Shown here: piece by piece, positions 5,723 to 39,713 of the stretch
Layout: every line of letters starts with the position of its first letter
Position numbering within the stretch: the stretch's first letter is position 1
UHGV virus genome: UHGV-0313764
Strand: one strand, 5' to 3'
DNA: 46,129 nucleotides
DNA from: a virus
Translations under genes and position numbers: made by a program
Notes under the pieces: generated by a model
Seen by the model: only the letters and a program-made list of their open reading frames with translations
What the model was told of the DNA's origin: nothing
The model's database searches: none

Positions 5723-6020
5723 CCTACATCTTGCCGTCAAAGGCGTATACTTCGATGCCATGCTCCGTGGAGAGAAAACTGAAGAGTATCGCCTTTTTAA
5801 TGATTCCTGGAAGAAACGCCTTGTTAACTTTAAAGATAGCGGACAGATTGGAAGGAAGTACGAACGGTTAATTATCACAAAAGGATATCCAAAGAAGGAC
5901 GATAAATCCAGGCGGATTGAAATCCCATACGAGGGATGGACGGTTAAAACCATCACACACCCTCACTTCGGCCCTAACCCAGTGGAAGTGTTCGCAATAA
6001 AAGTTAACATCAAAGCATAA
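5715..6020 (+). CDS. hypothetical protein (101 aa), possibly a PUA/ASCH-like beta-barrel domain
   Basis: ORF with start overlapping the previous stop. Weak resemblance to ASCH/DUF3850-type small proteins (N-terminal hLhhK..YF.AhhpGpKp.EhR). Confidence 0.35.
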   Translation: MANLHLAVKGVYFDAMLRGEKTEEYRLFNDSWKKRLVNFKDSGQIGRKYERLIITKGYPKKDDKSRRIEIPYEGWTVKTITHPHFGPNPVEVFAIKVNIKA

Positions 6021-6052
6021 CAAAAAGCCCGCAAACGCGGGCTTTATTATTT
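6021..6052. terminator. bidirectional Rho-independent terminator
   Basis: Hairpin AAGCCCGC-aaac-GCGGGCTT flanked by an A-run upstream and TTATTATTT downstream. It lies between the convergent plus-strand gene (stop 6020) and the minus-strand regulator (stop 6047). Confidence 0.6.
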
Positions 6053-6289
6053 AACAATCCATTTTGTAACAGCTGGCCTCAAATCTTCCTTTCTGAAAAC
6101 TCCACCAGTAAGCGCCTCGGCATCAATTGCTGCTGTAGCGCTAATTCTTCCTCTTGACACCCACTGATTGACAGCCTGTTTTGACACACCAAGAAACCTT
6201 GCCAGTTGTGATTGCCCTCCAACATAATCAATCAGCTCTGACAGCTTCGTCTGTTCCATTTCTCTTATCTGTTCTGCGATGCTTTTCAT
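6047..6289 (-). CDS. Cro/CI (XRE-family) helix-turn-helix transcriptional regulator
   Basis: HTH motif GGQSQLARFLGVSKQAVNQWV. The internal start MKSIAEQ has an AGAGG RBS. It is divergent from the Sak4-like operon. Confidence 0.6.
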   Translation of the reverse strand: MKSIAEQIREMEQTKLSELIDYVGGQSQLARFLGVSKQAVNQWVSRGRISATAAIDAEALTGGVFRKEDLRPAVTKWIVK

Positions 6290-20673: not shown

Positions 20674-20702
20674 TTGACACCTGCGAGGTGGTGATGTAGA
20701 TT
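20674..20702 (+). promoter_or_regulatory. sigma70-like promoter (TTGACA-17-TAGATT), promoter-family member
   Basis: GGTGTTGACA cctgcgaggtggtgatg TAGATT. It drives the plus-strand moron cassette. Confidence 0.6.
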
Positions 20703-20737
20703 CAAATCATCGAAACGAGATATGAATGAGGTGAGTT

Positions 20738-21031
20738 ATGAAAATTAAAATGTTGATTGCATCTGCTTTACTGGTTTCTTCCTTTTCCGTCAGCGCAACT
20801 TCAGAGATGTGCAAAAACATCGGAGAAATTGCCATGAATACCGCCGATGTTCGCGACAACGGTATCAGTAAGAATCTTGCCGAGGTGGTAGTAAAAGGCT
20901 CAGCAAAAAACAACGAATCAGCAGAAATAATCGGCCTTGCTATCGTAGAAATGGTTTATGCACGCAAGGATATGACAAAAGAGCAATTGCGTGATGTATC
21001 TGTTGCTTTGTGCGAAAAGAATGGAATGTAA
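20738..21031 (+). CDS. small secreted protein (signal peptide)
   Basis: N-terminal MKIKMLIASALLVSSFSVSA followed by a TSE cleavage-like site. First gene of the moron cassette. Confidence 0.5.
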   Translation: MKIKMLIASALLVSSFSVSATSEMCKNIGEIAMNTADVRDNGISKNLAEVVVKGSAKNNESAEIIGLAIVEMVYARKDMTKEQLRDVSVALCEKNGM

Positions 21032-21063
21032 TATAAACAAGTTATTAACAGTTGAGGTTAGCT

Positions 21064-21258
21064 ATGGACGTTGTTATTTTGTTGTTTTTTGTTGGTTTGG
21101 TGATATTTGCGTACCTTCTGCCATCCTTTGTGGCATTGCAAAGAAAGCATACAAATACGACCGCAATCTGTGTGCTAAATATTCTTGTCGGATGGAGTTT
21201 TGTTGGGTGGGTTGCAGCACTTGTTTGGGCATTAGTTAAGAGTGACAACAAGAAATGA
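21064..21258 (+). CDS. superinfection immunity (Imm-like) small inner-membrane protein
   Basis: ATG at 21064 with GAGG RBS. Sequence LPSFVALQRKHTNTTAICVLNILVGWSFVGWVAALVWAL matches the Imm_superinfect family pattern (LPS..A..RKH.N..AIfvLN.lLGWt.iGWv.AliWAl). Confidence 0.5.
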   Translation: MDVVILLFFVGLVIFAYLLPSFVALQRKHTNTTAICVLNILVGWSFVGWVAALVWALVKSDNKK

Positions 21259-21398
21259 ACGAACAAACAAAAGCAGACCTGATTTTCTACACTGATTTGT
21301 ATGTCGATGCGGGTTACGACTATGAAGAAGCTGAACGCATGGCGAAAGACTTGCTTCGTGTGATTGGTGTGATTTTTGATGAGGATAAGGTGATATGA
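21255..21398 (+). CDS. hypothetical small protein (47 aa)
   Basis: ATG at 21255. Its stop overlaps the next ATG (ATGA coupling). Confidence 0.25.
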   Translation: MNEQTKADLIFYTDLYVDAGYDYEEAERMAKDLLRVIGVIFDEDKVI

Positions 21399-21589
21399 GT
21401 CAGTGGATTAAGTGTAGTGAGCGGATGCCAAACGAAGAAGATGTTTTGGTTTATTGCTCAGACACAAAAGAGCAGATGGTTGGATTCCATAAGGGGAAAG
21501 GACTATTCCAATTTTTCTATATGAATGGAGTTGAAGGAGTCTGTGAGCCAACATACTGGATGCCACTACCGCAGCCACCACAAGAATAA
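21395..21589 (+). CDS. DUF551-like phage protein
   Basis: 64 aa, MSQWIKCSERMP...YWMPLPQPPQE. The W....E.LP... YWMPLP.PP pattern is typical of DUF551. Confidence 0.45.
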   Translation: MSQWIKCSERMPNEEDVLVYCSDTKEQMVGFHKGKGLFQFFYMNGVEGVCEPTYWMPLPQPPQE

Positions 21590-21591
21590 AA

Positions 21592-21620
21592 CAAAGCCCC
21601 TTTCGGGGCTTTTTCTTTAT
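21592..21620 (+). terminator. Rho-independent terminator closing the moron cassette
   Basis: Hairpin AGCCCC-tttc-GGGGCT followed by TTTTCTTTAT. Confidence 0.6.
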
Positions 21621-22336
21621 CAGGATACGGTGCAAGCCGTACTGATAATAATTTCCGGGTCAGTAGATGAATCAGTCACCGTAACGGTATACACACCAGC
21701 GGTAGGGCTTGCCAGTGTCGCACCAGATTCGCTACCGACAACCACGCCATCTTTGCGCCAAACGTAGGTGTAAGGAGCAACGCCACCTTCAACAGCAACA
21801 GTTAACGGGCTGCCAGTGCTGCCAGTTGATGGCAGGTCGGTGGTAAACGCCAGAGGTTCAAGGCTTTCTACGGTAACGCTGTCGGAATCGTAAACTTTGA
21901 ACTCAAGGCTGCCGGTTACGATGTCGTTCGTGCCGCCTTCGTAGCTGATGCTGGTGATGTTGCAGTACGCTGTAACGATAGTTGCACCAGTAACCTGACG
22001 CACCCACAAAGAAGGCTGGCGACGCGCTTTCAGTTCAGTGGCGTAAATCTCAACAAGACGATGGAAGCCAAACTCATCGCTCGGGTCATTCTTGCGGATT
22101 TCAACCTCTGCGCTGATGGTCATATCAGAGCTGGTAACGAGAGTGGAAACAAAGCCGCCAGCGGTATCCGCTTCCGACGTAGTGGTCTGCGGCGAGTAGT
22201 CCACGCCTTTACTGGTGGTTGAGCCTAAATATTTCCAGTCTCCAGCTTCAGGAACTGCGTCACCGCACCCTTCAGCAAGGAACAGTCGGGTCATGCGACC
22301 GACCAGAACGCCCTTATCATTTGCACAAATAGCCAT
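21620..22336 (-). CDS. major tail protein with C-terminal Ig-like (Big_2-type) domain
   Basis: 238 aa. The C-terminus PLTVAVEGGVAPYTYVWRKDGVVVG...GVYTVTVTDSS is Ig-like, as in lambda gpV-type tail tube proteins. Confidence 0.6.
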   Translation of the reverse strand: MAICANDKGVLVGRMTRLFLAEGCGDAVPEAGDWKYLGSTTSKGVDYSPQTTTSEADTAGGFVSTLVTSSDMTISAEVEIRKNDPSDEFGFHRLVEIYATELKARRQPSLWVRQVTGATIVTAYCNITSISYEGGTNDIVTGSLEFKVYDSDSVTVESLEPLAFTTDLPSTGSTGSPLTVAVEGGVAPYTYVWRKDGVVVGSESGATLASPTAGVYTVTVTDSSTDPEIIISTACTVS

Positions 22337-22387: not shown

Positions 22388-22416
22388 TTGACAGCTATTA
22401 TTTTGTGGTGTAGATT
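22388..22416 (+). promoter_or_regulatory. sigma70-like promoter (TTGACA-17-TAGATT), near-duplicate of the 20674 promoter
   Basis: GGTGTTGACA gctattattttgtggtg TAGATT. Confidence 0.6.
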
Positions 22417-22422
22417 GTATTT

Positions 22423-23135
22423 CAGATAGTTTTCGTAAGCGACTTTGCGGACTTTTTAGAAACTGACCACAAAGATAAATGCAAACGATGATGTTGTTCT
22501 GATGGCGGCGTAATAGCCTTTAAGTCAGCAAGGTCTTCCGACTCCTTGTAAACAAATTCGGCGCAGTGGCCCGCTGTGATTAATAATGGGCACCTACCAA
22601 TGAGAGCATTATGATTGATCGTCGTTCTTGCGCGCAAAGTCTGTTCGAAGATAGTGCTCTCTTTAGTGGGTAACAACGGGCACGTTGCCTTAGTAAATCC
22701 CGCACAGGTGCAGCGAATAATCCGGTAATGTCGTTGTCGTAAGCCACACGAAACGTGGCACACAACAGGTAAGAGCATTGAGTCGATAATCGTGAAGAGT
22801 CGGCGAGCCTGGTTAGCCAGTGCTCTTTCCGTTGTGGTGAATGCGCAGGCTGATGCGCTAATCAGGTGAACGAGAGCTTGTCTGGTAGTTGGTGTGTAGC
22901 GCCAACCGTTTCAGAAGATGCAGGCAAGACCACGCAGCCTGGTGATAAACGTAGTGGCTGCTGGACAAGATGTAAAACGAGGCGTCGTTACACGCCTATC
23001 GTCACTAAGCCGGAGATCAGCACCGGCCACCACAACACTTAATATCCAGCATTGTCGCAATCATATATATGGGTATGTATGGGTTACGGGGACTGGATAT
23101 TAAGAAAGCACGCTGGCAATGCTTAAACCAGTGAT
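22423..23135 (+). ncRNA. candidate large structured noncoding RNA (about 0.7 kb), promoter-to-terminator, no plausible ORF
   Basis: The transcript is bounded by the 22388 promoter and the 23135 terminator. The plus strand has only ORFs of 61 aa or less. The antisense 118-aa ORF is Cys-rich with no RBS. The segment has many short GC stems (for example GCCAC-acgaaac-GTGGC, GCGCA-ggctga-TGCGC, GCCGG-agatcagca-CCGGC, AGGCG-tcgttac-ACGCCT). It is GC-richer than its flanks. Confidence 0.4.
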
Positions 23136-23168
23136 AAGGCCGCCTAATGCGGCTTTATTTATTTCACA
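23135..23168 (+). terminator. Rho-independent terminator
   Basis: Hairpin AAGGCCGC-ctaat-GCGGCTTT followed by ATTTATTT. Confidence 0.6.
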
Positions 23169-23533
23169 ACCCGCAAAAGCAACTCATGCACAGGTCGCTT
23201 CTCTTCCGTTAACATCGGTCTACCGAGCGGAGCCTGCAACTGGATGTAGTTAACGCATGAATCAATCGGGTGAGTTTTGATGTATTCGATAATCTCATTG
23301 GCTTTAGCGTCAACATCAGCTACATTGTATTGTCCATGCTTCCCAACAACGTACAACGAGAAATAGAAATCACCACCTAGACCATCCATAACCTGCGTGC
23401 CGCCGTTTGATTGGAGGACAATAAATTGCTCGCTTCCATCTCCGGTATCATTCCAGAACTGCAACTGCGAAGTCCAGCCATCATACAATCCTGCATCCTG
23501 AAGATATGCATCAACTAGTTCAAGCATATTCAT
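23159..23533 (-). CDS. tail completion/terminator-like protein
   Basis: 124 aa, positioned between the gp10-like gene and the major tail protein. Assignment is positional. Confidence 0.4.
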   Translation of the reverse strand: MNMLELVDAYLQDAGLYDGWTSQLQFWNDTGDGSEQFIVLQSNGGTQVMDGLGGDFYFSLYVVGKHGQYNVADVDAKANEIIEYIKTHPIDSCVNYIQLQAPLGRPMLTEEKRPVHELLLRVVK

Positions 23534-38720: not shown

Positions 38721-39702
38721 GCTCTGGTTTTCCTCCGAGCTTTCTAATAATTTCTGCAGCAACGCACGGATCAACATTAAAAAATTCAGTCGCCCCATCG
38801 AAACCTGACAACCCAGCATTTAAGTCCTTTAGCTTCCTATGCGCAGCGCCTTCCGCTTTCCTTGCTTTGTAATAGCTTTCGAATGAGAACTGACACAACA
38901 AAGAGATAGAAAGACCTGATTTTTTAGTTAGTTGCTGAATCCTTAGCGGAACGTTATTTGATAAACCTATCTTTATCATTCCATCTGCTTCCAACAAATA
39001 AACCATAGTCTTTTTGAATGGGTTTCTTCCTGCGCATTTTGCACACCCGCGACCCTTGGCGTGATGGCCAGCAAACTGGCGAAAACTGCCATGAATAGGG
39101 CATATTATTTCAACCATGCTATTCATTCCACTAAAAACCACCTCATCATATAAATATTTCCCGCCATGGGCCTCTTTACATCTTGCTATGAAGGATTCTG
39201 TATCCATGCCACCTTTTCCACTGCAAACCCTGCACCCAATATTCCCTCTCAAGTGATCTCTTGCTATTTGCTGGAATTCACCATGTTTTTTGCACCTTAT
39301 GGTTATCATTGACAGCATTCCAGAGTATTTGGTTGGTGAATAATCATAAATATCATGGTTTTTACTGGGAATCATATCCATAAACTCATCATGACTGTAC
39401 CCGTTATGCATTCCCCTGCCGGGCCTGCACTTTCTGCATCCGTTGCAGCCGTTGAGGTGATCATTTGGCGTCTGTTTAAATAACACATCATGCTGAATAC
39501 ATCTAATGATTACTGGCGATTTCCTTTTGATGTATTTAGTTTCTGAATAGTCAAATTTATCGCCGTGAATTAACTTAGCGCGTGAAATGAAATCTTCTGT
39601 GGTAGGTCTTTTTGCCATCATTAACCCCGTAGCAGGCTCGTAGATTGAGGACTGCAGCAGGGTGTCTACGTTCACCTTTTCGCCTGGCCGGACTAGCTGC
39701 AC
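38716..39702 (-). CDS. T5orf172 (GIY-YIG-like) domain protein with three N-terminal Cys/His zinc-ribbon-like repeats; putative homing-type endonuclease
   Basis: Three repeats of about 55 aa each (...KYIKRKSPVIIRCIQHDVLFKQTPNDHLNGCNGCRKC; ...MITIRCKKHGEFQQIARDHLRGNIGCRVC; ...VEIICPIHGSFRQFAGHHAKGRGCAKC), plus a C-terminal MVYLLEADGMIKIGLSNN...L T5orf172-type module. Confidence 0.55.
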   Translation of the reverse strand: MQLVRPGEKVNVDTLLQSSIYEPATGLMMAKRPTTEDFISRAKLIHGDKFDYSETKYIKRKSPVIIRCIQHDVLFKQTPNDHLNGCNGCRKCRPGRGMHNGYSHDEFMDMIPSKNHDIYDYSPTKYSGMLSMITIRCKKHGEFQQIARDHLRGNIGCRVCSGKGGMDTESFIARCKEAHGGKYLYDEVVFSGMNSMVEIICPIHGSFRQFAGHHAKGRGCAKCAGRNPFKKTMVYLLEADGMIKIGLSNNVPLRIQQLTKKSGLSISLLCQFSFESYYKARKAEGAAHRKLKDLNAGLSGFDGATEFFNVDPCVAAEIIRKLGGKPEQ

Positions 39703-39713
39703 TTATGATTATA

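Follow-up and report, generated by a model that had tools for sequence, protein, structure and literature searches.

A tmRNA-like RNA module with an arm complementary to host tmRNA in a mosaic stable-RNA operon of a siphophage

The virus genome UHGV-0313764, a stretch of 46,129 nt referred to here as the window, represents a siphophage of about 46 kb whose closest relatives are the Escherichia phages Bas77-79 and Salmonella Saltrevirus and Skatevirus. Positions 22388 to 23168 contain an operon, transcribed from its own early-type promoter, in which a module derived from transfer-messenger RNA (tmRNA) is combined with tRNA-like and hairpin modules that are shuffled among many phages. Trans-translation, the process served by tmRNA, is the main bacterial ribosome-rescue and quality-control pathway, and some phages depend on it. 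The first product of the operon, module A (22424-22591, plus strand; the first ~170 nt of the transcript), has the architecture of the mRNA-like part of tmRNA and begins with an arm complementary to host tmRNA. The interpretation favoured here, still tentatively, is that module A is a chimeric tmRNA-derived RNA which, once docked on host tmRNA, would hide the host tag and offer one of its own.

The coding part of module A lies at 22481-22513 (plus strand), where the frame GCA AAC GAU GAU GUU GUU CUG AUG GCG GCG UAA would specify the tag ANDDVVLMAA. It follows a single-stranded linker with the resume context ACAAAGAUAAAU (22471-22480, plus strand), assigned by reading the sequence and matching the consensus of the Rfam models tmRNA_permuted and beta_tmRNA. 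U at -5 and A at -4 correspond to U85/A86 of Escherichia coli tmRNA, positions with a known role in tmRNA. In E-value mode, tmRNA_permuted (RF04321, 27.7 bits) and beta_tmRNA (RF01850, 17.7 bits) both aligned to 22404-22562, with the match centred on the resume context AUAAAU and the frame; these scores lie below the respective gathering thresholds of 47 and 84.

All homologues fetched from IMG/VR and GenBank possess the 10-codon frame and its stop. Since sampling anchored in the tag would be circular, homologues were picked a second time independently of the tag, by a pattern in the second pseudoknot, PKb. In this PKb-anchored sample, each of the 85 distinct module sequences had the ten codons and the stop intact; together they specify 17 tag peptides in 25 nucleotide versions, among them ANDEQFLAVA, ANDDLMLMAA, ANEEMYLAVA, ANDNYALAAA, and ANDSEMRMVA. 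The variable sites are distributed 5/6/9 over the three codon positions, the third being the most variable, and UAA, UAG, and UGA are all used as stops. The start of the tag, Ala-Asn-Asp/Glu, and the final Ala are invariant. In the earlier, tag-anchored sample, the other two frames carry stops in 19-20 of 20 versions. Because the frame is intact in all 85 sequences, varies at third positions and ends in three different stop codons, it is, by sequence comparison, under coding-type selection.

The frame runs into a hairpin resembling helix 5 of tmRNA (22499-22528, plus strand; covariation helices 1-2 of alignment A1), with the stop codon in the loop. Two H-type pseudoknots follow on the same strand, PKa at 22529-22561 (CAAGG/CCUUG and CCGA/UCGG; helices 3-4) and PKb at 22562-22591 (CGCAG/CUGUG and GCCC/GGGC; helices 5-6). 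Covariation of these helices was tested in an alignment of 32 sequences, using slid partners and 500 shuffles as controls. For helix 5 and both pseudoknots together, 89.7% of the cells were paired versus 38-48% when partners were slid, and 16 of 26 pairs showed compensatory changes; the observed value was reached by none of the 500 shuffles. Compensatory changes were detected in seven of nine pairs of PKa, in which 92-97% of cells were paired, and in six of nine pairs of PKb, and both stems of each pseudoknot carry them. The inner helix of the helix-5-like hairpin was only 66% paired because of alignment shifts. In four homologues (L002, L091, L117, L006) the stems of PKb are expanded or replaced.

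A counterpart of PK1, the pseudoknot upstream of the resume codon in tmRNA, was not detected in module A; the upstream 44 nt (22427-22470, plus strand) have no conserved internal partner. This arm pairs instead with nt 55-106 of tmRNA of E. coli K-12 (ssrA), which served as target in all pairing calculations, while the host of the window phage may be a different one. The predicted duplex comprises 38 bp (36 Watson-Crick, 2 G.U) with an energy of -43.1 kcal/mol and extends from the 3' half of PK1 across the linker and the resume codon G90 into the host tag, of which codons 1-6 are covered. Its helices are formed by UAGUUUUCGU of the arm with ACGAAAACUA of tmRNA (nt 97-106; codons GAC GAA AAC UAC), GCGACU with AGUCGC (nt 86-91, including G90), UUGCGG with CCGCAA (nt 75-80), CUUUUUA-GA with UC-UAAAAAG (nt 65-74), and CUGACC with GGUUGG (nt 57-62). 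An energy of -43.1 kcal/mol was reached by none of 600 shuffled arms (mean -26.2 ± 2.9 kcal/mol), none of 400 natural 363-nt segments (-24.8 ± 3.5 kcal/mol, best -34.1), and none of 300 shuffled tmRNAs (-25.8 ± 2.7 kcal/mol). Along the 0.74 kb of the transcript, only the 5' segment stands out for pairing with tmRNA. By co-folding, the net gain amounted to -14.7 kcal/mol. Pairing between the arm and the phage's own template downstream is weaker, at only -20.4 kcal/mol, since phage and host tags differ at codons 4-6.

Comparison of arms from different phages revealed that 47 of 58 distinct variants pair with tmRNA from nt 54/56 to 106/107 at -39 to -51.5 kcal/mol, with z-scores of -2.7 to -8.9 (44 at or below -4). 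These 47 variants are derived from lambdoid prophages, P1-, Vi01-, and G7C-type phages, and Klebsiella siphophages. The bulge opposite host nt 92-96 is filled in by arms of other length, such as ...GUUUUCGUCACGUUAGCGACU, and longer versions such as AGUUUUCGUCACGUUAGCGACU are a nearly continuous reverse complement of host nt 86-105. Arm columns predicted to be paired vary in 9.1% of the cells versus 33.3% for unpaired columns, being 3.7 times more conserved. The distance of about 11 nt from the end of the arm to the phage resume codon equals the spacing between PK1 and the resume codon in the host. Judged by these comparisons, the complementarity between arm and tmRNA is statistically exceptional and kept across variants, as expected of a trans-acting antisense RNA.

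Module A thus resembles tmRNA (SsrA, including permuted and two-piece forms; RF04321, RF01850, RF00023) in an A/U-rich resume context followed by GCA, a 10-codon tag starting with ANDx and ending with a hydrophobic residue and A, a stop codon in the loop of helix 5, and tandem H-type pseudoknots thereafter. Unlike tmRNA, it is devoid of acceptor stem, T-arm, and CCA, scores below curated thresholds, has two downstream pseudoknots instead of the canonical three, carries the antisense arm in place of PK1, and is phage-borne within an operon of several RNA modules. Assembly of function from more than one RNA piece, as proposed here for module A, is known from two-piece tmRNA, but the second piece would be the tmRNA of the host and not a product of the same gene. 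The element varies the tmRNA theme in that a tRNA-like domain is missing and an anti-tmRNA arm is present.

The favoured interpretation would involve the following events. The arm would hybridise to host tmRNA and cover its resume codon and tag template, the intermolecular helix taking the place of PK1. The hybrid would tether the phage template to the alanyl-tRNA-like domain of the host RNA and to SmpB, and the phage resume codon would be presented about 11 nt from the end of the helix. Rescued ribosomes would then resume on the phage frame, and nascent chains would receive (A)ANDDVVLMAA and not (A)ANDENYALAA. The outcome would be a chimeric tmRNA assembled in trans, a 'tag swap'. The downstream rods and tRNA-like domains described below are regarded as co-transcribed, exchangeable scaffold modules. 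We infer that the hybrid between arm and tmRNA forms in vivo and serves ribosomes. ClpX reads the C-terminal LAA of the host tag and SspB reads AANDENY; a tag ending in LMAA and missing N6/Y7 would therefore probably change degradation kinetics.

Several points weigh against a tag swap. All functional claims are computational. PK1 of host tmRNA is a stable pseudoknot, and the pairing energies exclude the cost of opening it. Close to the decoding site, an intermolecular duplex of about 50 nt may be too bulky for trans-translation to proceed, or it may be a substrate of RNase III. The target sequence is that of E. coli, which may not be the host of the window phage; in Salmonella tmRNA, one base of the target is different, and Salmonella is among the hosts of relatives. 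Arms of the Felix-like, Erwinia-type, and L027-type phages pair only with tmRNA nt 79-107 and with weak z-scores of -0.4 to -2.3, the target being again E. coli tmRNA and maybe not that of their hosts. Finally, the arm could be sequestered in cis by the complementary tip of rod Sa, a hairpin immediately downstream of module A.

The main rival is pure antisense inhibition. The arm would block the host tag template or trigger cleavage by RNase III, stopping tagging or rescue, and the tmRNA-like part would be an untranslated mimic for stability or for binding of S1 or SmpB. Its basis, the complementarity between arm and tmRNA, is the best-supported feature of module A, and there is a precedent among the phage tmRNAs surveyed so far, which include those of mycobacteriophages, Bacillus phage G, marine two-piece forms, and an RNA of mycobacteriophage DS6A consisting only of the tRNA-like domain (PMC4131195, PMC9004378, PMC11915505). 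The DS6A RNA is reported to inhibit tmRNA (PMC4131195, PMC11915505), so phages do interfere with the tmRNA system. As a partial phage tmRNA thought to disturb trans-translation of the host, it is similar to module A and at the same time its mirror image, since module A keeps only the mRNA-like part and adds an antisense arm. Inhibition alone, however, accounts neither for the intact frame in all 85 sequences, with third-position variation, three stop codons, and invariant ends, nor for the avoidance of pairing between arm and tag of the phage RNA itself. It is considered unlikely and less probable than the tag swap.

Downstream of module A, the transcript contains rods, which are long hairpins with conserved arms and variable tips, and further modules, all on the plus strand. 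Rod Sa (22592-22671) has the outer helix ACCUAC/GUGGGU, the arms GAGAGCAUUAU (22602-22612) and AUAGUGCUCUC (22651-22661), and a 38-nt tip (22613-22650). This tip carries CGCAAAGUC (9 nt) and CGAAGA, which are complementary to 22433-22450 of the antisense arm; it therefore mimics the host target and could lock the arm in cis. This 9-nt complement to the arm is present only in the window phage and its closest relative (L099), and the tip was rejected as a general partner of the 5' region for this reason. In L115, the same rod has a tip consisting of D-arm and T-arm. Module C (22666-22766) contains the hairpins GGCA..UGCC, CAGCGA..UCGUUG, and GCCAC-ACGAAAC-GUGGC, which, judged by eye, are kept with changed stems in L125, L018/L115, and L089.

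Rod Sb (22768-22830) is composed of GGUAAGAGCAUUG, a 37-nt tip, and CAGUGCUCUUUCC. Rod and tip are 98.8% identical over 82 nt (22761-22842) to the late leader of lambda/HK630 just after tR'. There (L124, 2500-2660), the unannotated element GGUAAGAGCAUUG...CAGUGCUCUUUCC with an identical tip overlaps the end of 'orf64'; after it comes lambda's own variant of the closed domain, with the helix GUUGUGCUG/CAGCACAAC. When rod arms were chosen by flanking context alone, 78 rods with 21 arm pairs were obtained, 20 of which were tested. In the 13-bp rod helix, 94.6% of the cells were paired versus 45-54% when slid, five pairs were compensatory, and none of 500 shuffles matched this result. The tips fall into shuffled families, some of which are 'elbows' of D-arm and T-arm.

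After each rod comes a domain with the closing helix GUUGUGNNN/NNNCACAAC, which covaries, with GUUGUGCUG/CAGCACAAC in lambda and GUUGCGGUG/CACCGCAAC or GUUGUGAUG/CAUCACAAC elsewhere. In the window, the tRNA-like domain (22831-23036) is closed by GUUGUGGUG/CACCACAAC and contains a D-like hairpin (22843-22858), a 150-nt insert, and a T-like hairpin (23009-23027). Its 3' hairpin covaries as well (GCCGG/CCGGC versus GUCGG/CCGAC). The loop AGAUCAGCA does not qualify as a T-loop, and the domain was matched by none of the tRNA models; the same slot is occupied in L003 by true D- and T-arms. The last module, a long hairpin at 23038-23104 (CUUAAUAUCCAG...CUGGAUAUUAAG), is kept in relatives. As a guess, rods and tRNA-like modules could act as processing punctuation or as scaffolding.

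These neighbours bring in another explanation, a self-sufficient split phage tmRNA which would obtain its acceptor from adjacent modules after RNase P and 3' processing, the match to host tmRNA being incidental. Candidate acceptors exist in the form of the 13-bp rods, often with G.U at the third pair from the tip, T-arm tips, and tRNA-like domains; rods and tRNA-like domains covary and accompany module A, and some relatives, such as L125, have a T-arm and a closed acceptor-like hairpin right after PKb. Yet the acceptor-like stem of L125 has G3-C70, a universal 3' partner is missing, and many loci have no tRNA or rod beside the module. Rods were rejected as alanine-acceptor stems because their 'discriminator' base is variable and no more than 11 of the 20 variants have G.U at the third pair. 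Pairing of rod arms across units, by which module A would be closed into a one-piece mini-tmRNA, was rejected too: the compensatory changes follow hairpin pairing, and cross-unit pairing is impossible in L084 and L001.

A tRNA-like domain, comprising acceptor stem with G3.U70, T-arm, and 3' CCA, was not detected in the window. ARAGORN called no tmRNA or tRNA, models of tRNA or of the tRNA-like domain of tmRNA had no match at E ≤ 1 across the whole window, and a T-loop motif search produced chance-level matches only. No T-loop or CCA-ended element was found in the window, and the idea of an acceptor piece hidden elsewhere in it was dropped on the basis of the ARAGORN, Rfam, and T-loop searches. 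At the place of an acceptor piece in the permuted layout, upstream of the coding piece, promoter and tail gene are located instead. Altogether, a split tmRNA is regarded as quite improbable.

In 23 + 44 related loci, no module-A homologue was called tmRNA by ARAGORN. The sole tmRNA call among the 23, L009, is a genuine permuted tmRNA (124 bits) which came up through the pattern search for module A. Its sequence UAGUUUCGAC had first suggested GUUUUCGU of the arm as a homologue of the tmRNA D-loop, a proposal that was dropped because the whole 44 nt are collinearly antisense to host tmRNA. ARAGORN calls the module-A family only where a chance T-arm is located upstream, as in Mordin (Mooglevirus, L250), in which a 750-nt 'permuted tmRNA' with the tag ANDNVFLAVA is predicted at 921-1670. 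This call speaks for a split tmRNA, as do reports of ssrA in Felix O1 and Moogle (PMC4392139, PMC4319497), but the 'gene' spans three bona fide tRNA genes and scores 30.3 bits in Rfam versus a threshold of 47. It was not accepted as proof of a tRNA-like domain. Calls of this type probably explain the published remarks on ssrA in Moogle and Felix O1; the module-A family has been glimpsed in annotation, yet without analysis. In the Felix-like phage allfine (L127), an unannotated D-armless tRNA-like RNA (1665-1746; Rfam tRNA 31.7 bits) with the anticodon loop CUUCUAA, G3.U70, and ACCA follows the module. It was rejected as the missing acceptor and is probably a decaying tRNA-Arg(UCU) gene, since Mordin has an intact gene at the same position.

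The arrangement of modules was analysed by megablast of the region against 50,697 phage records. Matches were found in 423 records, but only three showed at least 80% query coverage, and separate sub-segments matched separate phages. Close relatives share the promoter, the long 3' hairpin, and the terminator, while the inserts in between differ: genuine tRNA-Met genes are found in L128 and L099, and a tRNA-like domain with the true D- and T-arms mentioned above in L003. Some close relatives do not contain module A at all, and in other phages the modules are found apart and in other orders. Shared ends with differing inserts therefore define the locus as a stable-RNA operon and a hot spot for the exchange of RNA modules.

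The initial annotation, made from the sequence of the window, had regarded the stretch as one RNA of about 0.74 kb, possibly ribozyme-like, and this part of it has to be given up in favour of a mosaic of separately mobile modules. A single large structured RNA, ribozyme-like or similar to GOLLD and ROOL and acting as a unit, is now highly improbable. It would fit the minimum free energy of the 746-nt transcript (-253 kcal/mol versus -227 ± 6 for shuffles, z = -4.1) and the context of phage and tRNA genes, which is reminiscent of GOLLD and ROOL. The occurrence of the modules separately and in other orders argues against it, however, and no Rfam family of such RNAs gave a match; GOLLD and ROOL, which bear no similarity to the locus, were absent even at E ≤ 10 in the region and E ≤ 1 in the window.

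Module A is widespread. A sensitive blastn search detected it in 743 phage records, in which it is almost never annotated. The phages infect Salmonella, Escherichia, Klebsiella, Erwinia, Shigella, and Citrobacter and include Felixounavirus, Mooglevirus, Ackermannviridae, Gamaleyavirus, Felix O1-, Vi01-, and G7C-like phages, P1, P7, D6, and lambdoid prophages. In Felixounavirus and Mooglevirus, the module is located inside a tRNA array. At least a portion of the transcript is matched in 333 of the 5,426 complete E. coli genomes; at the best places, module A lies between the Q antiterminator and holin genes of lambdoid prophages, and none is annotated.

Genes for tRNA-Arg(UCU) and tRNA-Met(CAU) recur beside module A (L261, L252, L285, L291, L287, L288, L301, L250); in E. 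coli, AGA codons are rare and prone to stalling. G7C-like phages contain, as seen in St11Ph5 (L001) at about 1840-2240, a row of non-canonical tRNA-like genes invisible to ARAGORN, with acceptor stem, T-arm, encoded ACCA followed by AUU, and odd or expanded bodies; the one annotated 'tRNA-Ala(CGC)' has U3-A70 and not G3.U70. On IMG/VR contig L258 (about 5950-6240), a module A with the tag ANDNYALAAA adjoins a gene for a Phd/YefM-like antitoxin.

Such a distribution also bears on the view that module A is an evolutionary relic, a fragment of a permuted-tmRNA gene now without function and hitch-hiking in a mobile array of tRNA-like cassettes. The high mosaicism of the locus, the absence of module A from some close relatives, and the genome announcement of the Felix-like phage Mushroom, in which no ssrA is reported (PMC4392139), would agree with a relic. 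Purifying selection on helices, frame, and arm positions across at least eight phage lineages and 743 records contradicts it, as does the presence of an own promoter in front of module A in several contexts. A relic is considered very improbable.

Transcription signals of the operon were largely as initially annotated. The sigma-70 promoter at 22388-22416 (plus strand; TTGACA-17-TAGATT, 10 of 12 consensus matches), with a predicted transcript start at about 22423-22424, is indeed a near-duplicate of the promoter of the neighbouring moron, the hexamers at 20674-20702 being identical. It is retained in L003 and L128 with different RNA downstream. In the window it directly abuts module A, as does an analogous promoter in allfine and Mordin. 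The proposed terminator was located by folding at 23136-23164 (plus strand) as the GC-rich hairpin GGCCGCCUAAUGCGGC followed by a U-run, although it was not listed by a consensus scan. The terminator and the stop codon of the downstream gene (23159-23533, minus strand; phrog_782), a conserved gene of the structural module, overlap. The upstream flank is the major tail protein gene (21620-22336, minus strand; phrog_853), and the operon is thus transcribed opposite to both flanking genes, as had been stated. A higher GC content than in the surroundings was not confirmed, with values of 0.45-0.51 in the RNA region, 0.52-0.54 in the upstream tail gene, and 0.44-0.46 downstream.

The absence of credible open reading frames (ORFs), also part of the initial annotation, was substantiated. 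The longest plus-strand ORF in the region comprises 61 aa, the 118-aa antisense ORF is present at 22422-22778, and PHROGs contained no match for these or other local ORFs. No reading frame stays open across homologues of the 5' module, so that the suspicion of a protein gene intact in relatives did not materialise, and a protein-coding or decayed gene was ruled out on these grounds. With Rfam at gathering thresholds and ARAGORN, there was no match in the window, which ruled out a known RNA family; the alignments to the two tmRNA models described above emerged in E-value mode. Structure and covariation, which had been predicted or named as a check, were found in individual helices of module A and the rods. 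The earlier observation was thus largely real, the stretch being non-coding, structured, separately transcribed, and outside the protein annotation; its interpretation was right in spirit, and the anti-defence or regulatory role it proposed is plausible as an anti-host role, but the identity of the RNA, with its tmRNA-type tag frame and 44-nt antisense match, was missed.

Some further observations concern the vicinity and the rest of the window. The homologous RNA locus of Bas79 (L129, 343-1007) bears the annotation of three small hypothetical proteins encoded on the other strand, which are almost certainly spurious. The plus-strand moron (20674-21612) within the minus-strand tail module contains four small ORFs, one of which (21052-21258) matches phrog_1039, 'immunity to superinfection'. 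The moron also has a bidirectional terminator (21593-21612). A near-threshold Rfam match to int-alpA was obtained at 39637-39703 on the minus strand (31.4 bits versus a gathering threshold of 35.8, E = 0.01).

Other phage RNAs show partial resemblance to the operon. Complete phage tmRNAs, those of the Bxz1 group, Bacillus phage G, and the two-piece ssrA of pelagiphages (PMC4131195, PMC9004378), are likewise phage-borne, often near tRNA genes, and placed after early promoters, but they have tRNA-like domains of their own and are detectable by ARAGORN. The prophage anti-sRNAs AgvB and AsxR (PMC4104026) base-pair with or mimic a host regulatory RNA and share the neighbourhood between Q and holin genes with module A in lambdoid prophages. 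The target of module A, in contrast, is tmRNA and not an Hfq-dependent small RNA (sRNA), and a replacement coding template is added. Rfam models of AgvB, AsxR, and STnc100 had no match in the window; these RNAs and Pas are different RNAs of the same prophage neighbourhood. Phage tRNA clusters are comparable in that the locus sits in or replaces such clusters, downstream domains are cloverleaf-like, and relatives have real tRNAs in the same operon, but rods and tRNA-like domains fail tRNA models. In the literature, no paper was found on the tag peptides or on a phage RNA antisense to tmRNA.

Possibly, module A stands for a novel type of RNA with which phages act against the host. Such a 'tmRNA re-programmer' would dock on tmRNA by about 38 bp, silence the ANDENYALAA template and insert its own, and would be widespread and overlooked. 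The whole family has been missed by tmRNA finders because these demand a tRNA-like domain, and in present annotation such loci are filled with small spurious ORFs. A second uncharacterised RNA family is represented by the rod and tRNA-like modules, of which one lies in the late leader of lambda. If the tag swap is true, products of stalled ribosomes in infected cells would carry a C-terminal tag chosen by the phage, with altered recognition by proteases and adaptors. It would be a previously undescribed takeover of a host ribonucleoprotein by a tmRNA-pairing RNA with a substitute tag, and it would account for a conserved, unannotated sequence in hundreds of well-studied phages and several percent of E. 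coli genomes.

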